Origin: Pseudomonadota bacterium
GTDB lineage: Bacteria > Pseudomonadota > Gammaproteobacteria > UBA9214
Reading direction: 5' to 3'
NCBI GenBank assembly: GCA_039714155.1
Contig: JBDLJX010000003.1
Span: 1-63,328 of the forward strand
DNA: 63,328 nt
In this document: positions 6,763 through 53,869 of the stretch, one piece after another
Layout: every line of letters starts with the position of its first letter
How positions within the stretch are numbered: position 1 is the first letter of the stretch
The notes under the pieces: generated by a model
What the model saw: the letters and a program-made list of their open reading frames with translations, nothing else
Databases searched by the model: none
What the model was told of the DNA's origin: nothing
Made by a program: the position numbers and the translations under genes

Positions 6763-7446
6763 ATGCATATCCTGGTTGTCGAAGACGAAACCCGCCTGCG
6801 CGAGCAACTGAGGGACCGCCTGCGTGACAGTGGCTACGTCGTCGAGGTGGCTGCCGACGGTGAGGAAGGCCTGTACTACGGCGAGGAATATCCGCTCGAC
6901 CTGGCGATTATCGATCTCGGGCTGCCGAAGTTGTCCGGTATCGAACTGATCCGCCGCCTGCGCTCCCGGGACCGGCATTTCCCGATCCTGATCCTGACGG
7001 CCAGGGGCAACTGGCAGGACAAGGTAGATGGCCTGGAAACCGGCGCCGATGATTACCTGGTCAAGCCGTTTCGCTTCGAGGAGCTCGAGGCGCGTTTGAA
7101 TGCCCTGTTGCGCCGCGCATCCGGCTGGTCGAAACCGGTGCTGGACTGCGGACCGATTTCGCTGGATACCGGCAAACAGTCCATCACGGTCTCGGGCAAT
7201 GCCGTGGAACTGACCGCCTTTGAGTACCGGGTGCTGGAATACCTGATGCTGCACGCCGGTGAAGTCATCTCCAAGACCGAACTGACGGACAACCTCTACG
7301 AGCAGGATTTCGACCGCGACAGTAATGTACTGGAAGTGTTCATCGGACGCCTGCGTCGCAAGCTGGACCCGGATAACACCATCAGCCCCATAGAAACACT
7401 GCGTGGCCGCGGCTATCGGTTCCGGCTGGAAGCCAACGCCGGCTGA
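6763..7446 (+). CDS. phoP: OmpR-family response regulator, PhoP-like
   Basis: ILVVEDE, DLAIIDLGLP, PILILTARGNWQDKVDGL..GADDYLVKPF.FEEL.ARLNALLRR, closely resembling Pseudomonas PhoP. Confidence 0.85.
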   Translation: MHILVVEDETRLREQLRDRLRDSGYVVEVAADGEEGLYYGEEYPLDLAIIDLGLPKLSGIELIRRLRSRDRHFPILILTARGNWQDKVDGLETGADDYLVKPFRFEELEARLNALLRRASGWSKPVLDCGPISLDTGKQSITVSGNAVELTAFEYRVLEYLMLHAGEVISKTELTDNLYEQDFDRDSNVLEVFIGRLRRKLDPDNTISPIETLRGRGYRFRLEANAG

Positions 7447-29756: not shown

Positions 29757-30722
29757 TCAGAGCATAGCTGCCAGTTTGATAACCAACGGCCGCAGTTCCT
29801 CCTGCTTCAGCTGACTGGCTGCCTTTTCCGGGCTCACCCACTGACGCCCCCGGTGGCGTTCCTCCCACTCCTCATCCGGTATGACACGGGTTACTTTCAT
29901 TGGATATACAGCCACGGTACAGGTGGCGCCCCACTTTTCACATGTGTAGCTGCCGAGCGCGGTATCCGCAACCTCCCCTTCGATACCCGCCTCTTCCATT
30001 GCTTCCTTTGCGGCTGATTCCTGTGGTGAAAGCCCCGGGTCCTTGATGCCTTTCGGGACCACCAGATGATGTTGCTTACTGGACGCTATGACCAGTATTT
30101 CCGGTTTCCCGTCACGCATACGGTATGGAATCACGGATGACTGGGTATAGTAGTAAGCGGGCCGGTCACGCCAATCCTTGCCGTCCGGCGCCGGGTAGGG
30201 AAATTTCTTCGGCAACGTTTCAGGACGCGTAATGGAGTCAAGACGGGCGCATCCGGCGATCAGTGCACGCCAGTCAGCCGGCATCTTTAATCTGGCCAGA
30301 GTCGCTGTCGGCAACAGTTTGCCATCCTCCGGCGCCGGAACCGCTGCGCTCGCCAGCCAGACAAGCAACTCCTCCAGCCCCGGGTTATGTCCTACCAGCA
30401 TGACCCGGCCCGCGGTATCCGGGCAATCACCGAGTACCGCAAGCAATTCATCAATATCAGCTGCGTAAATACGCTTGTCCTGCTGTATCCCCTCGTCGCC
30501 CCTACCCATGGCCTTGCAGGCCTTCTGGGCCGTGACCAGCGCACGTTCCGCAGACGATGTGACAATAAGGTCAGGTACCATTTTCTGCTGCGCGAGCCAT
30601 ACCCCGATGCGCTGGGCACCCCGTTTGCCGCGGTCCTTCAGCGGGCGATGATAATCATCAACGCCGGTATTCCAGTCGGACTTGCCGTGGCGCAGCAGCA
30701 GCAGTTCACGTGTCATGATCAT
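29757..30722 (-). CDS. SixA-like histidine phosphatase fused to a NUDIX (DIPP-like) domain
   Basis: LLRHGKSDW...RPL..RG, VGHNPGL; C-terminal VIPYR...PKG...AAKEAMEEAG. Confidence 0.88.
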   Translation of the reverse strand: MIMTRELLLLRHGKSDWNTGVDDYHRPLKDRGKRGAQRIGVWLAQQKMVPDLIVTSSAERALVTAQKACKAMGRGDEGIQQDKRIYAADIDELLAVLGDCPDTAGRVMLVGHNPGLEELLVWLASAAVPAPEDGKLLPTATLARLKMPADWRALIAGCARLDSITRPETLPKKFPYPAPDGKDWRDRPAYYYTQSSVIPYRMRDGKPEILVIASSKQHHLVVPKGIKDPGLSPQESAAKEAMEEAGIEGEVADTALGSYTCEKWGATCTVAVYPMKVTRVIPDEEWEERHRGRQWVSPEKAASQLKQEELRPLVIKLAAML

Positions 30723-40736: not shown

Positions 40737-42284
40737 ATGCGTATCGAATTTATCATTCCCGAAGATCTGGACTACGAAGACCTGCAGTCAACGCTTCGGA
40801 AAAACACCCGGATGCTCCCGGAACCGGTACGGACAATCTACAGGACGTACTACGACAGTTTTGACTGGCGCCTGTATCAGAACGATTCCCTGCTTGAAGA
40901 CACCCGTGACGGCAATGAACACACACTGGTGTGGCAGACCCTGAAGGGCGAATACCGCTGCCCCCGGTTAAAGCTGCATGCAGCACCCCGGTTTGCCAGA
41001 GACCTGCCACATGGACCGTTTCGCAACAGCCTGGAACCGGTGCTTGAAATGCGCGAACTCATCCCGAAAGTCAGGATCCGTTCCCGGATCAATAGCCTGC
41101 GCATCCTGAACAGGGACGAAAAAACCGTGGCCTGGCTGACAGTCGAGGAAAACACCCTGCTGCGGCAGAAAGGGACACGCTCCGGAAAACTTGATAAGCG
41201 GGCTGTAGTGATTCCGGTCAGGGGCTACCCGAAACCCGGCAAGGCGCTGGCAAGACGCCTTCAGGAGCAGGGTCTGACCCCCGCGCAGGATGACCTCATG
41301 CTGGCGGCCCTGTCCACTACCGGTGCAATACCGGCCAGCTATTCTTCCAAGCTGGACCTGAAGCTGGATCCCGCCATGCGTGCAGACAGGACAACCAAGG
41401 TCATCCTGCACCGGCTCCTCGATATCATGTTACAAAACGAGGCTGGCACCCGCACGGGTACGGATACCGAATTCCTGCATGATTTCCGTGTCGCAATCCG
41501 CCGCACCCGTTCGGCCCTCACCCAGATCAAGGCGGTATTTCCGAAACGCATCGTTGACCGTTATAAAACCGAATTTGCCTGGCTCGGCGGGGTAACCAGC
41601 CCCAGCCGTGACCTGGATGTGTATTTACTGAATTTTGATGAATACCGTGACAGCCTGTCAGCCGCCATGCAGGCCGATATCGAACCACTGCGTGATTTTC
41701 TCATCAGGCACCAGAAGACTGAACACAGGACCCTGGTCAAGGCACTGGATTCGGCGCGCTACCGCCGGCTGATCAGGAACTGGCGTCTGTTTCTGGACCA
41801 GCCGGTCAACGAACGCTCGACACTGAAAAATGCAGGCCGGCCCGTCATTGAGGTTGCCTGCGAACGGATCTGGCGTGTCTACCGGTGCGCCATCCGGGAG
41901 GGTAATGCGATCAATGCAGAGTCGCCCGCGGATGCCCTGCATGAACTGCGCAAGACCTGCAAGAAACTGCGATATCTCATGGAGTTCTTCCAGAGCCTGT
42001 ATACGACCGGTAATATCAAGGAGTTAATCCGGGTACTCAAGACACTGCAGGACAACCTGGGTAATTTTCAGGATTACGAGGTACAGGTCACCACATTGAA
42101 AAAATTCAGCCACCAGATGGTTGCCGAAGGTACAGTCCCTCCTGATACGCTGCTCGCCATGGGTATGCTTATCGACGGCCTGGAACGGCGCCAGCATCAG
42201 GCGCGGGAAGAATTTGCCGGCCGGTTCGCGAATTTCTACCTGCAGGAAAATCAGGACCGGTTCCGGAAACTGTTCGCATATTAA
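40737..42284 (+). CDS. CYTH-like + CHAD domain protein (polyphosphate-binding family)
   Basis: YYDSFDWRL; E.LHDFRVA.RR.RS; LHELRK.CKKLRY..E, LQD.LG..QD. Confidence 0.9.
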   Translation: MRIEFIIPEDLDYEDLQSTLRKNTRMLPEPVRTIYRTYYDSFDWRLYQNDSLLEDTRDGNEHTLVWQTLKGEYRCPRLKLHAAPRFARDLPHGPFRNSLEPVLEMRELIPKVRIRSRINSLRILNRDEKTVAWLTVEENTLLRQKGTRSGKLDKRAVVIPVRGYPKPGKALARRLQEQGLTPAQDDLMLAALSTTGAIPASYSSKLDLKLDPAMRADRTTKVILHRLLDIMLQNEAGTRTGTDTEFLHDFRVAIRRTRSALTQIKAVFPKRIVDRYKTEFAWLGGVTSPSRDLDVYLLNFDEYRDSLSAAMQADIEPLRDFLIRHQKTEHRTLVKALDSARYRRLIRNWRLFLDQPVNERSTLKNAGRPVIEVACERIWRVYRCAIREGNAINAESPADALHELRKTCKKLRYLMEFFQSLYTTGNIKELIRVLKTLQDNLGNFQDYEVQVTTLKKFSHQMVAEGTVPPDTLLAMGMLIDGLERRQHQAREEFAGRFANFYLQENQDRFRKLFAY

Positions 42285-42300
42285 CCAGGGAACCCCCAGT

Positions 42301-43053
42301 TTGAAAGTAATCGCCACATACAACATCAAGGGCGGTGTCGGCAAGACGGCAACCGCGGTTAACCTCGCCTGGCTGGCGGCCCGCGAAGGTGCGCCAACAC
42401 TGGTCTGGGACCTCGATCCCCAGGGCGCCGCAAGCTACTACTTCCGTATCAAACCCAGTATCAAGGGAGGCGGCAAACGCCTGGTTCAGGGCAAGCGGGA
42501 CCTGGATGATTTTATCCGCGGTACCGATTATGAACTGCTCGATCTGCTGCCAGCGGATTTTTCCTACCGGAATATGGATCTTTACCTGGAACAGGCGAAA
42601 AACCCGATACGCCAGCTGCGCAAACTGCTCAAACCCTTCAAGAGTGAATATTACTATGTTTTTCTTGACTGCCCGCCGAGCATTTCCCTGGTATCGGAAA
42701 ACATCTTCGAGGCGACCGACACGGTGCTGGTACCAACCATACCAACCACCCTGTCGTTGCGCACCTACAAGCAGATCCGGAAATTTTTCCGGCAGCACGC
42801 ACTTGACACAGTCAAGATCCTGCCGTTCTTCTCTATGGTCGACCGCCGCAAGCAAATGCACCGCACTATCGTTGACAACCCGCCCGGGTACGTGGAGAAC
42901 CTCCTGCAGAACCATATTCCCTACAACAGTATCGTTGAGCGTATGGGAGACTATCGTGCCCCGCTGGGCGAATTTGCACCCAACAGCCATGCCAGCCGCT
43001 GCTATGAGGCCCTGTGGGAAGATGTCAGACAGCAGTTATCCGGCCAGGAATAA
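42301..43053 (+). CDS. ParA/Soj family ATPase
   Basis: YNIKGGVGKT deviant Walker A, WDLDPQG, DCPPS; TTG start 42301. Confidence 0.9.
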   Translation: MKVIATYNIKGGVGKTATAVNLAWLAAREGAPTLVWDLDPQGAASYYFRIKPSIKGGGKRLVQGKRDLDDFIRGTDYELLDLLPADFSYRNMDLYLEQAKNPIRQLRKLLKPFKSEYYYVFLDCPPSISLVSENIFEATDTVLVPTIPTTLSLRTYKQIRKFFRQHALDTVKILPFFSMVDRRKQMHRTIVDNPPGYVENLLQNHIPYNSIVERMGDYRAPLGEFAPNSHASRCYEALWEDVRQQLSGQE

Positions 43054-43128
43054 GCCGCTTATTTCCAGGGAGTATCCCGGCAACAGCACACCCGCATCCT
43101 GCGGGTCTGAATCCTCACACCGTAATAA

Positions 43129-43142
43129 TTGATCCAGATCAA
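43129..43142. promoter_or_regulatory. FNR/Anr-type box
   Basis: TTGAT-ccag-ATCAA, perfect consensus; AATACT ~20 nt downstream. Confidence 0.7.
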
Positions 43143-43250
43143 AAAAACGCCATATATCAGGCAATACTGATTGCTCCTGACTCAGCCTGATGCCAGCATG
43201 TTTAGTTCACTAATCATGTCACCTTGAAAAAATTGAGGGGGTTAAGGAAC

Positions 43251-43601
43251 ATGAAACCAGCCATTATCGATATTCCCGGCATCGGGCCGGCAGCAGCAGA
43301 AACACTGGCCGAACATCGCATCAGGAGTCTTGCCGGCCTTGCCAGGGCATCTGTCGAGAAAATCACCGCCATTCCCGGTTTCAGTGAAGCACGCGCCACC
43401 CAGGTCATCGCAGCCGCCGCCGAGCTGCTTGCCGCATCAGGAACAACCCCGGCAGCCAAAGACGCAGGTGAGGAATCCGGGAAAAAGACCAAGTCTGGCG
43501 GCAAAGGCAAAAAAGACAAGAAGAAAAAAGACAAGGGAAAAGGCAAGAATAAGGGTAAAGGTAAGGGCAAGAACAAGGGAAAGAAGAAAGGCAAGAAATA
43601 G
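43251..43601 (+). CDS. Helix-hairpin-helix protein with Lys/Gly-rich tail
   Basis: IPGIGPAAA..L and IPGFSEARA HhH pair; tail KGKKDKKKKDKGKGKNKGKGKGKNKGKKKGKK. Confidence 0.85.
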   Translation: MKPAIIDIPGIGPAAAETLAEHRIRSLAGLARASVEKITAIPGFSEARATQVIAAAAELLAASGTTPAAKDAGEESGKKTKSGGKGKKDKKKKDKGKGKNKGKGKGKNKGKKKGKK

Positions 43602-43691: not shown

Positions 43692-43809
43692 ACCCTGTCT
43701 CCCCCGGCCACCACTTTCGCCAGTAAGCTGGCTCCTGCAACCAACTGCCCGGGCATGCGACCATTGTGTGCCCATCATATGCACCAGTCATTCCGGCCAC
43801 TCTCGAAAT

Positions 43810-43854
43810 TTATCATCACATGGTAATAAAACGGTAACATTCCGCTGTTATTGT
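43810..43854 (+). promoter_or_regulatory. Tandem Pho box upstream of pstS
   Basis: TTATCAT-caca-TGGTAAT-aaaa-CGGTAAC (11 bp period), 10 nt, TATTGT. Confidence 0.65.
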
Positions 43855-44021
43855 TAGCTAACCTTAAGCTAACGCAAATTTAATATCTCTCTAATACTGA
43901 CCTGACAACACGTCTCTTCAGCGACTGGAATAACCGTCTCCACAAGCTGGAAAGACTGTAAACGCCGGGAGAAAACCGGTGTTTATGTGTAATGCATACA
44001 TATTCAACTGGAGCTGAAATC

Positions 44022-44894
44022 ATGAAACTGAAACTCATTCTTTCCACAACGCTGCTGGTGTCCGCCCTGCTAACCACAATGGCCCCGCAGGCACGCACCC
44101 TGATCCAGAACAAGGGCTCGGATACACTGGTCAATGTCGCCCAGGCCTGGGCAGAAGCCTACCCGAAGGTTAACCCCGATGTCGCTGTTGCTGTCTCCGG
44201 CGGCGGCTCCGGCACGGGCATTGCGGCCATGATCAACGGCACGGTGGATATTGCCAACGCCAGCCGCAAGATGAAGGCCAAGGAGATGAAGCTGGCCAAG
44301 GAAAACGGCCAGTCACCGGTCGAGCATGTCGTCGGCTACGATGCGCTGGCGGTATTCATTCACAGGGACAACCCGGTCAAGTCCATGTCGCTGGCACAAT
44401 TAAAGGACATCTACGGCCGTGACCCCAAGGTCAAAAAGTGGTCGGACATGGGCATCACCGTTCCCGGCTGCAAGGACAAGATTGTGGTGGTGAGCCGGCA
44501 GAACAATTCCGGCACCTACGTCTATTTCAAGGAGACCGTGCTGGGCAAGAAAGGCAAGTATCGCCAGGGAACACTGGATATGCACGGCTCCAAGGATGTT
44601 GTTGACCTGGTCGAGAAGACACCCTGCGCCATCGGCTACAGTGGTCTGGCCTATGCCACGGACCACCTCAAGATGGTCTGCATAGCAAAAGACGGCGCGG
44701 ATGCCTGTGTAAACCCGAGTGTTGGAACAGCCAGCGACCGCAGTTATCCCATTGCCCGTCCGCTGTTCATGTACACCGACGGTGAGCCCAAGGGCGCGAT
44801 CAAGGCCTACATGGACTGGATTCAGAGCGATGCCGGTCAATGTATATTGAAGAAAAAAGGCTACGCCCCAATACGCGCCGTCAAGTGCGACTGA
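44022..44894 (+). CDS. pstS: Phosphate ABC transporter substrate-binding protein
   Basis: KGSDT, GGGSGTGI, DIANASR, SRQNNSGTY..F, YPIARPLFMY; ATG 44022 after GGAG. Confidence 0.93.
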   Translation: MKLKLILSTTLLVSALLTTMAPQARTLIQNKGSDTLVNVAQAWAEAYPKVNPDVAVAVSGGGSGTGIAAMINGTVDIANASRKMKAKEMKLAKENGQSPVEHVVGYDALAVFIHRDNPVKSMSLAQLKDIYGRDPKVKKWSDMGITVPGCKDKIVVVSRQNNSGTYVYFKETVLGKKGKYRQGTLDMHGSKDVVDLVEKTPCAIGYSGLAYATDHLKMVCIAKDGADACVNPSVGTASDRSYPIARPLFMYTDGEPKGAIKAYMDWIQSDAGQCILKKKGYAPIRAVKCD

Positions 44895-45052: not shown

Positions 45053-46138
45053 ATGAGTCACTACGAAGAACGTCTGGAAAGAGACCTGGCCGCCATCCGC
45101 GTACAGGTGGCAGACATGGCCGCCCTGGTGGAAACAGGGGTCAAGAATGCCATGCACGCACTGCAAACCGGCAATAGCAAGCTCGCATCCGCCACCGTAC
45201 TTGCAGACCACCCGATCAACCGCTCCATGCGGTGGATCGACCAGTTATGTCATAAATTCATTGCCCTGCACCTGCCGAGCGCGGGTCATCTGCGGTTGCT
45301 GTCCTCCGTGATCCGGGCAAACATCGAACTGGAACGGATCGGAGATTACGCCGTCACCATCGCCCGCGAGGCATTACAACTGTCGGCACCTCCGTCAGGA
45401 CCAATGTCCCGTGAACTGGAACGTGTCGGCAGCGAGACGCAACTCATGCTGGGCCAGTCCATCAAGGCCTTTAACGAGCTCAATCCTGAAATGGCAAAAG
45501 GCACCATGATCATGGAAGAGCAGATGGAGAATGACCTGGACATCATCTATTCCGAGTTGATGGCCAATGACGACCGGGATGCGGTCAAGAACCTGCTGGC
45601 GATGTTCGCCGTTTTCACCCAGCTGAAACGGATCGCAGACCAGGCCAAGAACCTCTGCGAGGAAACGGTTTTCGCCGCTACCGGTGACACCAAGGCACCC
45701 AAGGTCTACAACATCCTGTTCATTGACGAGGACAACAGTTGTCAAAGCCAGATCGCCGAGGCCATTGCCCGCAAGAACTTTCCCGAAAGCGGCAACTACA
45801 CCAGCGCCGGGCGGCAACCTGCCGCCGGGCTGAATCCTGCCATGGTGGAATTTCTTGACAGCCATGGCGTAAGCCTTGCTGACACCGCCAAACCCAGACC
45901 CCTTGACATGACCCCGCTGGAACTGACCACACAGCATTTCATCGTCAGCCTGCAGGGCACGGTCAACTCCTACTTCGACCTGATCCCCTTCCACACCACC
46001 CCTCTGGAGTGGGACGTCGGTCCCGCCCCGGAGAGTAGTGATGAAGCCGGCATCAAGCGAATGGAAGAACTCTACCGTGACACGGCCGTCCAGGTTCGTG
46101 ACCTGATGGAAGCCCTGCGCGGTAAGGAAGCGCCTTGA
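45053..46138 (+). CDS. phoU: PhoU fused to a degenerate LMW-PTP/ArsC-like domain
   Basis: ELERIGDYA and LKRIADQAKNLCE PhoU repeats; ILFIDEDNSCQSQIAEA...SAG in place of C(X)5R. Confidence 0.85.
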   Translation: MSHYEERLERDLAAIRVQVADMAALVETGVKNAMHALQTGNSKLASATVLADHPINRSMRWIDQLCHKFIALHLPSAGHLRLLSSVIRANIELERIGDYAVTIAREALQLSAPPSGPMSRELERVGSETQLMLGQSIKAFNELNPEMAKGTMIMEEQMENDLDIIYSELMANDDRDAVKNLLAMFAVFTQLKRIADQAKNLCEETVFAATGDTKAPKVYNILFIDEDNSCQSQIAEAIARKNFPESGNYTSAGRQPAAGLNPAMVEFLDSHGVSLADTAKPRPLDMTPLELTTQHFIVSLQGTVNSYFDLIPFHTTPLEWDVGPAPESSDEAGIKRMEELYRDTAVQVRDLMEALRGKEAP

Positions 46139-46139
46139 T

Positions 46140-47072
46140 ATGCCCGACCAGCAGCTGACAGAGAGAGCCAGCATGACGGCATTCGATCGTCGCAACGCCG
46201 ACTGGTATATCGACAAGCTGGTCCAGGTGCTGGTCTTCATCGGCGGCATCTCGGCCATCATCTTTGTCGTCGGTATCTTTGCCTTCGTCACCAAGGAAGG
46301 CTTCGGTTTCATTCTCGACCGCTTCGATTTCCAGGAATTCTTCACCTCCCCCTACTGGTACCCCGCCGAAGAGGAGGATCCTGAATATGGTATCCTGGCG
46401 CTGATCGCGGGCACGGCCAGTGTCACCGGACTGGCCATGCTGGTGGCCATCCCGTTTTCACTGGGCGCGGCGATCTATGTCGCCGAATTTGCCAGCGGCA
46501 AGACCCGGGAGACCCTCAAGGTACTGGTGGAACTGCTGGCCGCCATCCCCTCGGTGGTATGGGGCTTCATCGGTCTCAGCATCATGAACCCGCTGATCAT
46601 ACAAGTCTTTGACGTCCCGGTGGGACTGAATGTACTGAACGCCGGCATTATCCTCGGACTGATGGCCGCACCCATCATGACATCCATCGCCGAGGATGCT
46701 CTCAAGGCGGTGCCCGACCGTTACCGGGAAGCCGCTGAAGCCATGGGCGCCACCCGCTGGCAGGTCATCTACAAGACTGTGTTACCGGCCGCCAAGAATG
46801 GCCTGCTGGGTGCTGTCCTGCTGGGTGTCGGCCGGGGTTTCGGCGAAACCATGGCCGTGCTGATGGCCACCGGTCACTCGATCAACATCCCGCACAGCAT
46901 CTTCGACTCGGTGCGCGCCCTGACGGCCACCATTGCCGCGGAACTGGGTGAAACCGCCGTCGGTTCCGATCACTACCAGGTACTGTTCACCATCGGCATC
47001 TTCCTGTTCCTGATCACTTTCGTTATTAACCTCACCGCCGATCTGATCGTGCGTGGCGTACGCAAGGGGTAG
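46140..47072 (+). CDS. pstC: Phosphate ABC permease PstC
   Basis: ELLAAIPSVVWG, P.RYREAA.AMGATRW, GRGFGETMAV.M. Confidence 0.93.
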   Translation: MPDQQLTERASMTAFDRRNADWYIDKLVQVLVFIGGISAIIFVVGIFAFVTKEGFGFILDRFDFQEFFTSPYWYPAEEEDPEYGILALIAGTASVTGLAMLVAIPFSLGAAIYVAEFASGKTRETLKVLVELLAAIPSVVWGFIGLSIMNPLIIQVFDVPVGLNVLNAGIILGLMAAPIMTSIAEDALKAVPDRYREAAEAMGATRWQVIYKTVLPAAKNGLLGAVLLGVGRGFGETMAVLMATGHSINIPHSIFDSVRALTATIAAELGETAVGSDHYQVLFTIGIFLFLITFVINLTADLIVRGVRKG

Positions 47073-47081
47073 GTACTAATC

Positions 47082-47951
47082 ATGTTCGAGACATCCGCAC
47101 TCAATATCAAAAACCAGCGGGTCCAGCGACTGTTTAATATCCTGTTCCTGCTGATGACCATGTTGCTGATTTTGCCGGTGCTGCTGATACTCGGGACCCT
47201 GGTTGCAAAAGGCGGCTCGGTCATCTCGATCGATTTCCTGTTCACCGCCCCGACCGACGGCATGACCGCAGGCGGCCTGTTCCCTGCCCTGCTGGGCACC
47301 GTCTGGCTGGTGGCGGTGGCGCTGCTGATCTCCGTGCCGCTGGGAATCGCAGCCGCCATCTATCTCAGCGAGTACGCAGGCAACAACTGGTTCACCCGCA
47401 TCATCAACCTGGCCATTATCAACCTGGCCGGCGTACCGTCGATCGTGCACGCCCTGTTCGGTGTCGGCGCCTTCGTGCTATTTTTCGGCTTTGGCACCAG
47501 CATCCTCGCGGCCAGCCTGACGCTGGCCATCATGACCCTGCCGGTGGTGATTGTGGCGACCCGCGAATCCCTGCAGGCGGTCCCGCATGCGTTTCGCGAG
47601 GCCTGCTGGAACATGGGCGCCACCCGCTGGCAGACCATTCGCCGCGTGGTGCTGCCCAATGCCGTCTCCGGCATCCTGACCGGTGTCATTCTCGAGGTAT
47701 CGCGCACCTCCGGTGAGACCGCGCCCATCATGTTCACCGGCGCCGTATTCTTCACGCCGTTCCTGCCACAGGGGATCTTTGACCAGACCATGGCCATGTC
47801 CCTGCACCTGTTCGTGGTATCGACGCAGGTCCCCGGCGTCCCCGAAGACCTGCCTTACGGTGTGGCCCTGGTGCTCATCGCCATGGTACTGCTGATGAAC
47901 AGCATCTCCATCGCCTTCCGTACCTGGTTGCGGGGTAAAAAGAAATGGTAG
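47082..47951 (+). CDS. pstA: Phosphate ABC permease PstA
   Basis: NLAGVPSIV..LFG, REA....GATRWQTI, R..GETAPI. Confidence 0.93.
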   Translation: MFETSALNIKNQRVQRLFNILFLLMTMLLILPVLLILGTLVAKGGSVISIDFLFTAPTDGMTAGGLFPALLGTVWLVAVALLISVPLGIAAAIYLSEYAGNNWFTRIINLAIINLAGVPSIVHALFGVGAFVLFFGFGTSILAASLTLAIMTLPVVIVATRESLQAVPHAFREACWNMGATRWQTIRRVVLPNAVSGILTGVILEVSRTSGETAPIMFTGAVFFTPFLPQGIFDQTMAMSLHLFVVSTQVPGVPEDLPYGVALVLIAMVLLMNSISIAFRTWLRGKKKW

Positions 47952-48748
47952 CCGGTATGCAGACAGCCGCACCTGCACCGGTAGCGGAACAAGTACCCAT
48001 CAAACTGGAAGTGCGCAACCTGTCCATTCGCTATGGCGATACAGCCGCACTCAGTGACGTCAGCCTGGACATCCGTGAACACGAAATCTTCGGCATCATC
48101 GGTCCGGCCAATGCCGGCAAGACCTCGTTCCTGAAAACGCTGAACCGCATGGACACGTTCAACTCCAGTATGCATGTCGGCGGTGAAATCCTGTTCAACG
48201 GTCTTGATATCCACCGCCTGAAAAATGTCTATGCATTGCGTTCCCGTATCGGTGTGGTATTCCCCCTGCCGGTCGGTCTGCCAATGACGATTTATGACAA
48301 CGTGGCCCTCGCCCCGCGCCTGTCAGGTATGAAAAAAAAGACCGACCTCGACATCATCGTCGAGCGCTGCCTGACCCGCGCCGCACTCTGGGATGAGGTC
48401 AAGGACCGGCTGACTTCCCTCGGCAGTCTGCTCTCCGGTGGCCAGCAGCAGCGCCTGACGATCGCCCGCGCGCTGTCCCAGGAACCGGAAGTGCTGATGC
48501 TCGACGAGTTCTCCATCGCCGTCGACCCGGTGACGACCATGCGCATCGAGGATGTCCTCAAGGAACTGAAACAGGAAATGACCATCATCCTGGTCACCAA
48601 CCTGGTACAGCAGGCGCGGCGTCTTGCCAGCCGAACCGCATTTTTCCTCAATGGCGAGTGCGTGGAAATCGGCGCGACCGAGGACCTGTTTACCGGCGAG
48701 GTCAAGGACCAGCGCACCCGGGATTACGTCGAGGGACGGTTTGGATAA
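47945..48748 (+). CDS. pstB: PstB-like ATPase 1 (intact signature, H-loop His replaced by Asn)
   Basis: GPANAGKT, LSGGQQQR, LDEF, LVTN, T..YVEGRFG. Confidence 0.88.
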   Translation: MVAGMQTAAPAPVAEQVPIKLEVRNLSIRYGDTAALSDVSLDIREHEIFGIIGPANAGKTSFLKTLNRMDTFNSSMHVGGEILFNGLDIHRLKNVYALRSRIGVVFPLPVGLPMTIYDNVALAPRLSGMKKKTDLDIIVERCLTRAALWDEVKDRLTSLGSLLSGGQQQRLTIARALSQEPEVLMLDEFSIAVDPVTTMRIEDVLKELKQEMTIILVTNLVQQARRLASRTAFFLNGECVEIGATEDLFTGEVKDQRTRDYVEGRFG

Positions 48749-49552
48749 ATGATGAATACAAGCAGCCAGGCAGTCATTGATAATCCGGTGGAATATGCCA
48801 TCCAGACAGAGCGATTGAATCTCTGGTATGGCACGTTTCAGGCGCTGTTCGATATCGATCTCGACATCAAGCAAGGCATCATCACTTCCCTCATCGGACC
48901 TTCCGGGTGCGGCAAATCAACCTTCCTGCGCAGTGTCAACCGCATTAATGAACGGCTCGGTTATGTGCGCATCGAGGGTTCGATCAATGTCTTCGACCAC
49001 AACATCTATGACCCGGCTGTCGAACTTGTACAGGTGCGCAAACAGATCGGCATGGTCTTCCAGCGACCAAACCCGCTACCGATTTCCATCCGCGACAACG
49101 TGCTGTTCGGCTACAACCTGCATTCGGAAGGCAAACGTGCCTCGCGCAGTGAACAGGATGATATCGCCGAGGACGCCCTTCGCCAGGTACTGTTATGGGA
49201 CAAGGTCAAGGACCGGCTGGACAGCAAGGGCACCGAACTCTCGCTGGAGGAACAGCAGAAACTCTGTATCGCCCGCCTGCTGCCCGTCAAGCCCGGCTTG
49301 CTGCTGATGGATGAACCCTGCTCCGCGCTCGACCCCAAGGGCACCGAGGCCGTGGAAGAGCTGATATGGGAACTGCGCGGCAAGTACACCATCCTCATCG
49401 TGACCCACAACATGGCCCAGGCGCGTCGCGCCAGCGAAGAATGCATCTTTATGCTGATGGGCAAGGTGGTGGAACACACGGCCACCGAAGACATGTTTGT
49501 CACACCCCGGAAACAGGAAACGGCGGACTACATCGAAGGCCGTTACGGCTAG
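48749..49552 (+). CDS. pstB: PstB-like ATPase 2 (degenerate signature, intact Walker A/B and H-loop)
   Basis: GPSGCGKS, MVFQRPNP, LSLEEQQKL, MDEPCSALDP, IVTHN, YIEGRYG. Confidence 0.9.
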   Translation: MMNTSSQAVIDNPVEYAIQTERLNLWYGTFQALFDIDLDIKQGIITSLIGPSGCGKSTFLRSVNRINERLGYVRIEGSINVFDHNIYDPAVELVQVRKQIGMVFQRPNPLPISIRDNVLFGYNLHSEGKRASRSEQDDIAEDALRQVLLWDKVKDRLDSKGTELSLEEQQKLCIARLLPVKPGLLLMDEPCSALDPKGTEAVEELIWELRGKYTILIVTHNMAQARRASEECIFMLMGKVVEHTATEDMFVTPRKQETADYIEGRYG

Positions 49553-49685
49553 CCCGCACAGATTGCCTGGCCCGGATGGAGTGTAACGGAATCCGGGAAA
49601 CTTGTTCCAAATAAGGCCCCGGATTCCGGCCCCTGGCTTACACCCCTCTTTGATTTGCTGACCACCTGCCATATCCTTGCATACC

Positions 49686-50372
49686 ATGTCCTGCATCCTG
49701 GTTGTCGATGATGATCCCGCCATCCGCGAAATGGTCGGCATGGCACTGGCCCGCGAAAGATACGAAGTCCTTGAAGCCGGGAGCGCGCTGGAAGCACGTC
49801 AGATAATCACTTCCCGAAAGCCTGACCTGATACTTCTCGACTGGATGCTGCCTGGACAATCGGGATTCGAATTCGCCCGTACATTGCAGAGGGATTCCGT
49901 TCACAAGCAGATTCCCGTCATCATGTTAACGGCGCGGGACCAGGAAGAAGACAAGGTGGCCGCACTGGAGGCCGGCGCGGATGATTATGTAGCCAAACCT
50001 TTCTCGGTCTCCGAACTGCTGGCACGCATCAAGGCCGTGCTGCGCCGCACCACCCGGGATACCGACGGGGAAATCCTGGCAAGCGATACGCTGCGCCTGG
50101 ACCCGGCAAGTCACCGGGTCAGCATCAATGACACCCCGCTGGAACTGACGCCCATGGAGTTTCAGTTACTGCTGTTCTTCATGACACACCCGGAGCGGGT
50201 TTACAGCCGTCAGCAATTGATCGACCGGGTCTGGGGAACCAGTGTCTATGTAGAGGAACGCACCGTCGATGTTCACATTCGCCGCTTGCGCAAGACCCTG
50301 GAGCCGTCAGGACACGACCGGCTGGTGCAAACGGTTCGTGGTAGCGGCTACCGCTTCTCCACACACGATTGA
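49686..50372 (+). CDS. phoB: Phosphate regulon response regulator PhoB
   Basis: [57 protein letters not shown]. Confidence 0.92.
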
Positions 50373-51685
50373 GCACGGAATCTCTCCATTCCATGCCCAG
50401 CCACTGGCGAGAAGAACTCCGGCTGTTCCTCGGGGTAGTGCTCATAGCAGGCCTGGCGGGTACGCTAACGGGACAACTGCTGCCGTGCCTGTTGCTCGGC
50501 CTGCTGGTTTATCTCGGCTGGCATCTGTATCAACTGGCCCGTCTGCCGCACTTGCTCGACCAGGACGGGCAGGACGGTCCGCGGCCCAATGGCCTGTGGA
50601 AAGGCATCGTCCGGGAGGTCCGGGACCTGCAAGCCAGCAACCGCACCCGCAGACGCGATCTCTCATATCAGCTTGACCGTTTTCAGGACACGGTCAACAC
50701 ATTGCCCGATGCCGTGGTCATTCTGGGCCCGTCGGGCGGAATCGACTGGTCCAACCCCGCCGCCGGGAATCTGCTGGGTATCATGTGGCCGGGTTCACAG
50801 GGCCGGTTATTGACTGCTCTCGCACCGGACCCGGTACTCGGAGAATATCTGGCAAGCGGTGATTTTGCCATGCCGCTGGTCATTACCTCACCGGCAAACC
50901 GGGCAAAGATCCTGTCAGTTTTTATCGCCCCGCTAAAACATGAAGCCAACCGGCTAATGGTCGTGGCGCGAGACATAACCCGCCAGTATTACCTCGATGC
51001 AGCACGGCGTGATTTTGTGGCCAATGTGTCGCATGAACTGCGCACCCCCCTGACCGTAATATCCGGACTTGCTGAACAGCTGAACATGGATGAGCCTGAT
51101 CCGGCCATACTGCACCGGTCAACCGGGCTGATACTTCAACAGGCAAGACGCATGAGTGAACTGGTATCCGACCTGCTGACATTGTCACAGCTGGAAATGC
51201 AGCAGGAATCTGCACCTGAGGAGCACGTCCCGGTAGCGAAACTCCTCACGACCATCATCGAGGAAGCACGTACCCTGAGTGGTGCGGCGCAGCATGTACT
51301 GCAACTGGATATCCGTTCGCCAAACGGATTGCGCGGCAACGCAAAGGAACTCCGTACCGCCTTTTCAAACCTGGTTAGCAATGCAATCAGACATACCCCG
51401 AGCCAGGCGGAAGTCAGGGTCCGGTGGCAGGTGGATCATGCGGGCGCTCATCTCAGTGTCATTGATACCGGGGAAGGCATTGCCGCCCGCCACATCCCCC
51501 GCCTGACCGAACGACTGTATCGTGTCGATGCCAGCCATTCACGGGATACCGGGGGCACGGGCCTCGGACTGGCCATTGTCAAACACGTACTCGAGCACCA
51601 CGAGGCAGAACTGGAAATTATCAGCACGGTGGGAGGCGGCAGCACCTTTACCTGCCACTTCCCGTCCGCAAGAGTGATCTCATGA
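50369..51685 (+). CDS. phoR: Phosphate regulon sensor kinase PhoR
   Basis: PAS-like region, [46 protein letters not shown]. Confidence 0.92.
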
Positions 51686-51716: not shown

Positions 51717-52127
51717 TCAGATGGTTTCCGGCAGTTTCTTCAGTACCTGCTTTAATCCGCCATTACTGACCAGTTTGAGGGCTTGCTGCAGCGACACCCA
51801 TTCACGCTTCCGGTCGGATTCTTCCCATACCTTGTAGATCCTGGTGACCCGCATCGGATAGACCTTGACGGTACAGGTCATGCCCCACTTCCTGTGCCGG
51901 TAGATACCCAGTGGCTTGCCGTGTACCCCGCCCTTCACACCGGCCTCTTCCAGCGCCTCCTTGGCAGCCGAGTTGCGCGCGCTGAGGTCGGACTCGATGA
52001 TGCCCTTGGGAATAATCCAGCGACGTTCCTTACGTGAGGTAATCAGGAGAATTTCAAGATTTCCCTTGCGCACCCGGTAGGGGATGACCCCGGACTGTCG
52101 GCAAAAGTAATCGGTCTTTACGGCCAT
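51717..52127 (-). CDS. NUDIX hydrolase, DIPP/Nudt3-like
   Basis: QSGVIPYR...EILLITSR...WIIPKG...AAKEALEEAGV. Confidence 0.88.
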   Translation of the reverse strand: MAVKTDYFCRQSGVIPYRVRKGNLEILLITSRKERRWIIPKGIIESDLSARNSAAKEALEEAGVKGGVHGKPLGIYRHRKWGMTCTVKVYPMRVTRIYKVWEESDRKREWVSLQQALKLVSNGGLKQVLKKLPETI

Positions 52128-52411: not shown

Positions 52412-53869
52412 ATGACGAAACAATCGATCTGGGAAAATATTCGGGGTTATTTCCACCCTGGTCAGGAAACCGTTATTCTCGATCACTCCCAAAGGCTTCG
52501 ACTCTCGGGCAAGGAACTGCGCATCCCCCTCAGTGGGTATCCGGAGTACCGGATCGAGATGGGCAAGCAGATTCTCATTCTGTCTCCGGACCCTGGCATC
52601 GCAGCATCTGATAACAAGTCACCCTGTGATTTCATCCTGTTCGACCCGGATCGATATCTTAACGGCATCGCCCATTTCCAAAGACTATCCCCCGGGTGTA
52701 CGCTTGCCATAGACAGCAAGGTTGAATATCAGGAACAGGTATTCAGCTCGCCACGTGATGCATTCCGCCGCCATTTTTCCGTTTCCCACACCGGTGACAG
52801 CCTGGTTTTCAGGGACCCGATATCGGAACTCGGCACCTATATTTCACTTACCGGCGACCCACAGGGAATTCCCGCACTTGCACAGCGGCGCAGGGCCGCC
52901 CTGAAGCGAGTCCTGGAAATTTTCGGCGGACCACTTGAGCCCCTGTCTCCACCTGAGGCAAGCGCAACCCTGAAACAGGTCAATGCCCTCCTCAGGAATG
53001 AAACCGGCCGTCACAAGGACGCCCTCGGCAACCCCGGTGGTGTCCTCGAGTTGCCGGACAATGTCACGCCGGTACTCGTCGGTGACCTGCATGCCCGGAT
53101 TGATAATCTGCTCACGATCCTCAGTGAGAATGCTGTCCTTGACCGCCTGGAGAAAGGCACAGCGGCACTGATCATCCTTGGGGATGCTGTACATTCGGAG
53201 GAACCTGGCAGACTCGATGACATGGAAAGTTCTCTGTTGATGATGGACCTGATTTTCAGGTTAAAACTGCAGTTTCCTGACCAGGTCTTCTATATCGTTG
53301 GCAACCATGACAGTTTTCTGCGTGAGTTAATGAAGCAAGGAATCCCCCAGGGGCTGCTCTGGGAAAAACAGGTGCTATCGTCACGCGGCGAGGCATACAA
53401 AACGGAACTGGAGCTCTTTTATCAACTGTCCCCGTTACTGGTACTCTCAAAAGATTTTATTGCCTGCCATGCAGGGCCCGCCCGCAGAAAAGTCTCGCAA
53501 CAAATCCTGATCGACGTACACCAGTTCCCCGATATTGTCCATGACATGACCTGGAACAGGATCAGGACTACGGCCTTCCCCGCTGGCTATACCCGTAGCG
53601 ATGTCTGTCAGTTCCGCAAGGGCCTGGAAGTCGGCACCGACACCCCGTTTATTGTCGGCCATCACCCCTGTTCCATTGATGAGACACTGTGGCTGAATGT
53701 CGGTCAGATCAATCAACACCACGTCATAATCAGCTCACGGCCCGATCGTGTCGGGATTTTCATCGGCATTGATGGCAAGATGGTGCCGCAAATCTACCCG
53801 GTTGAAGCACTAACCACGTGGCTGAATGAACAGGCCGCTGTGGCTACTCCTGGTACTCGTTCAAACTGA
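52412..53869 (+). CDS. Calcineurin-like metallophosphoesterase with N-terminal extra domain
   Basis: GDLHA, GDAVHSE, GNHD, CHAG, GHHP; stop codon lies within the family E element. Confidence 0.85.
   Translation: MTKQSIWENIRGYFHPGQETVILDHSQRLRLSGKELRIPLSGYPEYRIEMGKQILILSPDPGIAASDNKSPCDFILFDPDRYLNGIAHFQRLSPGCTLAIDSKVEYQEQVFSSPRDAFRRHFSVSHTGDSLVFRDPISELGTYISLTGDPQGIPALAQRRRAALKRVLEIFGGPLEPLSPPEASATLKQVNALLRNETGRHKDALGNPGGVLELPDNVTPVLVGDLHARIDNLLTILSENAVLDRLEKGTAALIILGDAVHSEEPGRLDDMESSLLMMDLIFRLKLQFPDQVFYIVGNHDSFLRELMKQGIPQGLLWEKQVLSSRGEAYKTELELFYQLSPLLVLSKDFIACHAGPARRKVSQQILIDVHQFPDIVHDMTWNRIRTTAFPAGYTRSDVCQFRKGLEVGTDTPFIVGHHPCSIDETLWLNVGQINQHHVIISSRPDRVGIFIGIDGKMVPQIYPVEALTTWLNEQAAVATPGTRSN

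Follow-up and report, generated by a model that had tools for sequence, protein, structure and literature searches.

Two PstB ATPases with complementary motif alterations in a widespread phosphate importer cassette: a probable obligate heterodimer with one canonical ATP site

Introduction

Type I binding-protein-dependent importers are the textbook example of a symmetric ATP-binding cassette (ABC) transporter, being driven by two identical ATPases. In the phosphate-specific transport (Pst) complex of Escherichia coli, PstSCAB2, PstA carries one nucleotide-binding domain (NBD) and PstC the other (PMC12976172). ATP sites of ABC transporters are composite: one NBD contributes Walker A, Walker B and its A-, Q- and H-loops, and its partner the signature motif (PMC7756269), a geometry that has been seen for PstB itself in the E. 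coli PstSCAB structure (PMC12976172). The PstBA and PstBB proteins of Bacillus subtilis have been modelled as a heterodimer (PMC12096839, PMC11466899). The coexistence of a consensus and a degenerate site is a central and still debated topic for ABC exporters (CFTR, TAP, TM287/288, Pdr5) and, apart from RbsA and NupO, reviews treat degenerate sites as an exporter feature (PMC3971661, PMC7756269). Described here are pstB1 and pstB2, two adjacent Pst ATPase genes on a stretch of 63,328 nucleotides from a gammaproteobacterium of the UBA9214 lineage (assembly GCA_039714155.1, contig JBDLJX010000003.1, positions 1 to 63,328; this whole stretch is hereafter the window). Their cassette would bring an exporter-style consensus/degenerate arrangement to a type I importer of the Pst family, with free NBDs and a motif signature of its own.

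In a literature search, with most subscription papers outside its reach, no PstB pair described as degenerate or as heterodimeric came to light, and the PstB1/PstB2 pair is not mentioned in a study of the Accumulibacter Pho regulon (PMC11361876). The cassette is a widespread variant of the Pst importer that has apparently not been described, both genes currently being annotated as ‘phosphate ABC transporter ATP-binding protein’.

Family assignment and motifs of PstB1 and PstB2

The two ATPase open reading frames (ORFs) and the motif strings quoted for them in the initial annotation are real and were found exactly at their coordinates, with PstB1 at 47945-48748 and PstB2 at 48749-49552. Both are complete ORFs of 267 amino acids on the forward strand and share 38% identity, encoding two non-identical NBDs. 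TIGR00972 (PstB) was by far the best family for both, with PstB1 scoring 285.3 bits (E 3.5e-85) and PstB2 318.5 bits (E 2.5e-95), each falling under the equivalog cut-off of this family (343.2). Both proteins also aligned over their full length to E. coli PstB (PDB 9k3x; E 7e-66 and 8e-72, respectively). Motif coordinates were checked by translating the exact codons, and residue equivalences were taken from the alignment to E. coli PstB.

PstB1 combines an intact signature with a deviant Walker side. Its signature motif LSGGQ (48431-48445) is perfect across the longer string LSGGQQQRL. The Walker A motif GPANAGKT (48101-48124) had been put forward as degenerate, and it does depart from the ABC consensus GPSGCGKS, yet it fits the general P-loop pattern GxxxxGK[ST] and keeps both Lys and Thr, so that judged by sequence it is deviant but not obviously dead. 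In the Q-loop (VVFPLPVGLP, 48254-48283) the Gln is replaced by Pro, a change absent from the initial annotation, while the loss of the H-loop His that it had reported (LVTNL, 48590-48604) was confirmed as a direct His to Asn substitution. The region of Walker B and the D-loop (LMLDEFSIAVD, 48494-48526), also listed earlier as a defect, carries FSIAVD in place of PCSALD after the Asp-Glu; the D-loop is thus altered from SALD to IAVD, but the Asp-Glu with its catalytic Glu is retained. Residues kept by PstB1 are Lys59, Thr60, Asp187, Glu188 (the catalytic Glu) and the A-loop Tyr30.

PstB2 presents the reverse picture, with a canonical Walker side and a deviant signature. Its Walker A (GPSGCGKS, 48896-48919), Q-loop (MVFQRPNPLP, 49052-49081), Walker B and D-loop (LLMDEPCSALD, 49301-49333) and H-loop (IVTHN, 49397-49411) are all canonical, and its signature reads LSLEE (49238-49252), with Gly-Gly replaced by Leu-Glu. 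Neither subunit therefore holds a full canonical motif set, PstB1 being without the Gln, the His and SALD, and PstB2 without LSGGQ, whereas the set is complete in 67/67 canonical PstBs of the comparison set. With the Walker-side deviations confined to PstB1 and the signature deviation to PstB2, one fully canonical composite site remains.

Conservation, co-occurrence and selection

A scan starting from PstB1, restricted to one genome per species, returned 19 loci with proteins 58-83% identical, and a PstB2-type gene lay directly downstream in 19/19. The corresponding PstB2 scan gave 80 further loci at 76-94% identity, 79 of them new; PstB1 was directly upstream in 78 of these 79, the sole exception being a contig that starts inside the pair. 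Across approximately 95 species-level genomes from about 10 phyla, pstB1 and pstB2 were always together where sequence was available. The taxa comprise Gamma-, Beta- and Alphaproteobacteria, Magnetococcales, Planctomycetota, Myxococcota, Acidobacteriota, Poribacteria, Binatia, Verrucomicrobiota, Gemmatimonadota and Rhodothermia. Among the gammaproteobacterial hosts are Sedimenticolaceae, Candidatus Thiodiazotropha, a Solemya gill symbiont, Chromatiaceae, Halieaceae, Lysobacterales and Thiotrichales, and further hosts include Accumulibacter UW18, Dechloromonas SSD3, Polyangiaceae, Holophagales, Thermoanaerobaculia, Limisphaera and Gemmatimonadaceae. An exact match to the PstB1 sequence was looked for and is not on record; relatives at 90-94% identity are metagenome-assembled genomes (MAGs) of uncultured Gammaproteobacteria. 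The suggestion that such a pair is unusual for a gammaproteobacterial Pst system therefore holds only relative to E. coli, as the pair is common in environmental Gammaproteobacteria and beyond.

The complementary pattern of intact and deviant motifs that had been proposed from the single locus was borne out by the orthologues, in which it is invariant. Conservation was counted over 90 distinct PstB1 and 94 distinct PstB2 sequences, with residues given in E. coli numbering. In PstB1, the changes Gln98Pro, His210Asn, Ser182Ile and Pro180Phe were each present in 90/90, and S45A in 86/90. Equally invariant (90/90) were LSGGQQQRL, Gly43/Gly48/Lys49, Asp178/Glu179, the D-loop Asp185 and the A-loop Tyr. 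In PstB2, Gly156Leu and Gly157Glu occurred in 94/94, and Walker A, the Q-loop Gln, the Asp-Glu and the H-loop His were likewise retained in 94/94. All four PstB1 marks were also present in 119/120 of the closest metagenome PstB1 clusters, the remaining one differing only in that it is without the exact DEFSIA string. In a library clustered at 50% identity, the PstB1 type was found to be a small family among 1,460 matches (E <= 1e-30), its own representatives being mainly fragments.

The ratio of nonsynonymous to synonymous substitution rates (dN/dS), estimated against seven relatives, was approximately 0.10 for PstB1 and 0.06 for PstB2, values similar to those of pstC and pstA. One might suspect that a redundant duplicate is decaying neutrally here, by drift or on its way to becoming a pseudogene, but nothing speaks for this beyond the deviation of a single sequence from consensus. 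The suspicion is refuted by identical changes in 90 and 94 orthologues of about 10 phyla at a dN/dS near 0.1; the VTN and LSLEE strings are fixed over the same range, divergence within each clade is below that among canonical PstBs, and this fixation under purifying selection excludes drift.

In a neighbour-joining tree, PstB1 and PstB2 each formed a clade with bootstrap 100/100. The two did not appear as sisters (0/100 bootstrap), although both lie on long branches in this analysis. Pairwise distances of PstB1 and PstB2 correlate across loci (r = 0.89) and, together with the separate clades, this indicates that the pair is inherited and transferred as a unit. Co-variation was also observed between position 46 of the PstB1 Walker A and positions 155/158 of the PstB2 signature (Gln/Arg with Gln/Leu, 5/5), but it is seen only within a single deep clade and so does not count as evidence of its own. 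The best explanation of these sequence data is that PstB1/PstB2 mark a distinct, horizontally mobile Pst importer subtype consisting of pstS, a phoU-pseudophosphatase, pstC, pstA, pstB1 and pstB2.

The proposed PstB1-PstB2 heterodimer and its two sites

Given the composite geometry of the ATP sites, both sites of a PstB2 homodimer would contain LSLEE, and both sites of a PstB1 homodimer would be missing the Gln of the Q-loop and the His of the H-loop. Because the motifs are complementary, only a PstB1-PstB2 heterodimer yields a fully canonical site. Taken together with fixation and strict co-occurrence, this makes an obligate heterodimer with one consensus site the best reading of the pair. 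PstB1 and PstB2 are thus likely to function as an obligate heterodimer in which one canonical site hydrolyses ATP and the other, altered site is non-catalytic or slow. Heterodimer formation, the choice of the hydrolysing site, the nucleotide occupancy of the second site and any regulatory role were deduced from sequence.

In the arrangement proposed, one subunit would dock on PstC and the other on PstA. In Site 1, PstB2 would provide Walker A, Walker B and the Q- and H-loops and PstB1 the LSGGQ; this fully canonical site would hydrolyse ATP and drive transport. Site 2 would be made of the PstB1 Walker A and Walker B with the PstB2 LSLEE; it probably still binds nucleotide but, as Gln is missing from its Q-loop, His from its H-loop and Gly-Gly from its signature, it is expected to be non-catalytic or very slow and may act as a structural or allosteric site. 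A single hydrolysing site would set the cost of transport at approximately one ATP per cycle. There is precedent among type I importers in the histidine permease HisQMP2, for which one intact site is reported to be enough (Nikaido and Ames, as cited in PMC3971661).

PstB1 shows no variation (90/90) in the residues that hold the nucleotide, namely Lys and Thr of Walker A, Asp of Walker B and Tyr of the A-loop, and the contacts to the gamma-phosphate (Q-loop Gln, H-loop His and the partner's Gly-Gly) have been swapped for new invariant residues. Pdr5's non-catalytic site, with the signature LNVEQ, holds ATP throughout the cycle (bioRxiv 10.1101/2021.02.09.430491). In CFTR, the substitutions G551E/D at the second signature Gly repel the gamma-phosphate and block ATP-driven NBD dimerisation at that site (PMC4178940). 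These two precedents diverge; with the binding residues retained, Site 2 most likely has nucleotide bound but does not carry out canonical hydrolysis. A Site 2 that is ADP-bound, empty or slowly hydrolysing is a less likely alternative.

Several points weigh against a heterodimer divided so neatly between an active and a silent site. The hallmark of a degenerate site is said to be that the catalytic Glu has been lost (PMC7544095), and PstB1 retains this Glu in 90/90. Mutants of nucleotide-binding site 2 (NBS2) of MRP1 with the H-loop His changed to Asn or Gln kept transport (PMC7756269) and, with the catalytic Glu in place and such a His to Asn change tolerable, Site 2 might hydrolyse to some degree. 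The CFTR G551E precedent in turn means that Site 2 may not close on ATP, leaving a role of ‘ATP as glue’ uncertain. The earlier claim that all defects fall in one site was upheld as far as the motifs are complementary, but appears slightly too clean, as PstB1 has kept its catalytic Glu and its altered D-loop would be central in the dimer and adjoin the consensus site, making the split between intact and defective imperfect. An AlphaFold2 model of a fused PstB1-PstB2 chain, run without an alignment, reached a mean predicted local distance difference test (pLDDT) score of only 33.7, too low for the model to be used. Furthermore, the spacer between pstB1 and pstB2 ranges from 0 to approximately 160 bp in other loci, and translational coupling of the two genes is thus not universal.

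The retained residues might instead mean that both sites of the heterodimer are catalytic, with the PstB1/LSLEE site having altered chemistry or kinetics, such as a slower turnover, a different nucleotide, or a turnover sensitive to ADP and phosphate. This would be consistent with the conservation, in 90/90 PstB1 sequences, of Lys and Thr in Walker A, Asp in Walker B, the catalytic Glu and Tyr in the A-loop, with the tolerance of MRP1 NBS2 to His to Asn/Gln changes, and with the absence from PstB1 of the hallmark Glu loss. It is nevertheless considered improbable, since three separate gamma-phosphate contacts (Gln, His and Gly-Gly) have been replaced together and fixed, and, with Leu-Glu where Gly-Gly is expected, the signature is reminiscent of the non-hydrolytic LNVEQ of Pdr5 and the G551E mutant of CFTR (PMC4178940).

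Less probable again is that the two proteins form alternative homodimers that are swapped on the same PstCA according to conditions, or that they have separate roles as has been proposed for the Enterococcus faecalis PstBs. The neighbouring pstB genes of E. faecalis have non-overlapping functions (PMC12096839), and the spacers between pstB1 and pstB2 in some loci could carry internal promoters. However, the E. faecalis and B. subtilis copies are both canonical (PMC12096839; locus L076), whereas either homodimer of the pair described here would have two defective sites; the genes are also never found apart, overlap or abut in the window, and show correlated divergence.

A further option, regarded as very unlikely, is that PstB1 is an ABC-fold regulator and not a transporter subunit, capping or inhibiting a PstB2 dimer or bridging it to PhoU/PhoR. 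In its favour, the PstB1 Q-loop, which is the main contact to the coupling helix of the membrane subunit, has been rewritten to PLPVGLP, and the cassette has an unusual PhoU fusion. Against this, a PstB2 homodimer would be left without any intact signature, PstB1 is full-length and collinear with PstB, and its LSGGQQQRL is perfect in 90/90, which is sensible only if it completes the ATP site of a partner.

A second asymmetric PstB pair was observed in a Clostridium sp. MAG (L046, 973-1773 and 4407-5171), where the two genes flank pstS-pstC-pstA. In one copy only the signature, LSPGQ, departs from the canonical motifs, while the other has the Walker A GPANSGITT (Lys to Ile), a Q-loop Gln to Asp and a Walker B Glu to Arg change, and an intact LSGGQ. 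This pair is apparently of independent origin and follows the same logic of complementarity, which suggests that complementary PstB degeneracy has arisen repeatedly.

Gene organisation of the cassette

Genes pstB1 and pstB2 close a row of pstS, a phoU fusion, pstC and pstA, all on the forward strand, and the same gene order was found in about 95 other loci. The products PstS, PhoU, PstC, PstA, PhoB and PhoR all score above their own NCBIfam cut-offs. The periplasmic phosphate-binding protein PstS (43992..44894; TIGR02136, 241.7 bits against a cut-off of 206.6) is conserved upstream in orthologous cassette loci. It is followed by the PhoU fusion (45053..46138) and by the permeases PstC (46140..47072; TIGR02138, 281 bits) and PstA (47082..47951; TIGR00974, 260 bits). 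The stop codon of pstA overlaps the ATG of pstB1 (ATGGTAG), and the TAA of pstB1 directly abuts the ATG of pstB2, with that stop codon separating the two ORFs. No further pstB was found elsewhere in the window. Downstream on the same strand lie the response regulator gene phoB (49677..50372; TIGR02154, 333.8 bits) and the sensor kinase gene phoR (50369..51685; TIGR02966, 384.4 bits), both above cut-off; PhoB-PhoR are located 3’ of PstB2 in this lineage and some others, which make up a minority of loci overall.

A search for E. coli-type Pho boxes returned eight matches in comparison to 5.4 expected, none of them upstream of pstS, and was not significant. An AT-rich segment 5’ of pstS (43800-43870) has GGTAAT/GGTAAC-like repeats approximately 11 bp apart, which might be a divergent PhoB site. 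Immediately upstream of pstS are genes for a CHAD-domain protein (40737-42284), a ParA/MinD-like ATPase (approximately 42300-43053) and a small protein that has a helix-hairpin-helix and a tail rich in Lys (43224-43601), and this set (40737-43601) looks like polyphosphate-granule-associated genes. Closely following phoR is a Nudix hydrolase gene (51717-52127, reverse strand), of which a paralogue with 49% identity lies approximately 22 kb upstream (29772-30155, reverse strand). The Nudix gene at 51717-52127 is followed by a gene for a 485-amino-acid metallophosphoesterase (52412-53869), which a 91%-identical relative (L081) likewise has after phoR. A second response regulator of the OmpR/PhoB family, 35% identical to the PhoB at 49677-50372, is encoded at 6763-7446 and is followed by an ORF of 448 amino acids.

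The PhoU fusion and co-resident Pst systems

The PhoU fusion has 361 amino acids, with PhoU (TIGR02135) spanning residues 7-212 and a domain resembling low-molecular-weight (LMW) phosphatases and ArsC following it. The latter matches PF01451 (LMWPc) from residue 221 (best stretch 221-280), and the ArsC family TIGR02691 extends to approximately residue 328. This domain is without the catalytic Cys, as its phosphatase P-loop (45710-45760) reads NILFIDEDNSCQS, in which ILFIDEDNSCQS replaces the C-x5-R motif. The Cys was found to be replaced in 14/14 orthologues of the fusion, with the Arg left in three only. The fusion is present in 14 of the 19 loci of the first set and in most of the second set, and thus travels with the PstB1/PstB2 cassette. 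Judging from these residues, the phosphatase-like domain is presumably a pseudo-enzyme that serves as a ligand-binding or a docking/regulatory module.

It has been reported that E. coli PhoU binds PstB by an interface that is unmapped (PMC4423584). A link between the altered Site 2 and PhoU/PhoR signalling is possible, and casting it as a ‘regulatory site’ with a role in that signalling is speculation. A more ambitious proposal, which is tentative and on balance doubtful, is that the cassette represents a new class of type I importer with built-in asymmetry and a cost of one ATP per cycle, in which Site 2 would have co-evolved with the PhoU-pseudophosphatase to become an allosteric point through which PhoU itself, or the phosphate or energy status of the cytosol, would restrain uptake and signal to PhoR.

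In some genomes, the cassette has canonical Pst genes beside it, and it can thus be a second, specialised system. Such co-residence is known from three loci alone, namely a canonical pstCAB (L116, 6231-8798), a second long pstC-pstA (L159, 4935-8793) and a separate plain PhoU with PhoR-PhoB (L110, 4795-7550). In a Poribacteria MAG (L014, 7609-9935), the pair was observed to be followed by a PstA-like gene, a third degenerate PstB-like gene and PhoU, the third PstB-like product having GPTNSGKST, a Q-loop Arg, LSIGQ and an H-loop Asn.

Comparison with known systems

The cassette offers a simple bacterial system in which the role of a non-catalytic site could be studied, as its subunits can be mutated and purified one by one. 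It would give a direct handle on the old question of whether one or two ATP are used per transport cycle, and would allow transport by Pst to be told apart from Pho signalling. Sulfur-oxidising symbionts and Gammaproteobacteria of sediments commonly carry the cassette, as do some polyphosphate accumulators (Accumulibacter UW18, Dechloromonas SSD3), and by its spread in these hosts it may matter for environmental phosphorus cycling.

The operon logic of the cassette (pstS, pstC, pstA and pstB together with phoU) is that of E. coli PstSCAB2 (PDB 9k3x/9k3s; PMC12976172), and both subunits resemble E. coli PstB in NBD fold and length, with approximately 45-47% identity and no C-terminal regulatory domain. 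The differences are that E. coli has one pstB, forming a homodimer with two identical canonical sites, where the cassette has two unlike genes, and that the PhoU of the cassette is fused to a dead LMW-phosphatase domain and sits between pstS and pstC. Tandem PstBs of Firmicutes (B. subtilis PstBA/PstBB and E. faecalis PstB1/PstB2) share with it two adjacent pstB genes in one operon (PMC12096839, PMC11466899). However, both Firmicute copies are canonical (PMC12096839) and fall outside the PstB1 and PstB2 clades, the shared names being coincidental.

Like the heterodimeric exporters TM287/288, TAP1/2, CFTR, BmrCD and MsRv1273c/72c (PMC7756269), the pair has non-identical NBDs with conserved complementary deviations and one canonical site. 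In those exporters, the NBDs are fused to membrane domains and the catalytic Glu is typically lost, whereas the PstB pair belongs to a type I binding-protein-dependent importer with free NBDs, in which the Glu is kept and the Q-loop Gln, H-loop His and Gly-Gly are lost. A hydrophobic residue and Glu at the Gly-Gly position are shared with the deviant site of the fungal PDR pumps Pdr5/Cdr1 (LNVEQ in comparison to LSLEE/LQLEQ; bioRxiv 10.1101/2021.02.09.430491; PMC6533308). Pdr5, a eukaryotic type V exporter unrelated by descent to the PstB pair, also loses the Walker A Lys, Walker B Glu and H-loop His, all within one polypeptide. Among importers, the nearest parallels are RbsA and NupO, in which one of two ATP sites is predicted to be non-functional (PMC11466899). 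Unlike the PstB pair, these are single-polypeptide tandem NBDs of the ribose/nucleoside family that have lost the Walker A Lys, and in NupO also the Walker B Asp-Glu, while PstB1 and PstB2 are encoded by separate ORFs and keep the Walker A Lys.

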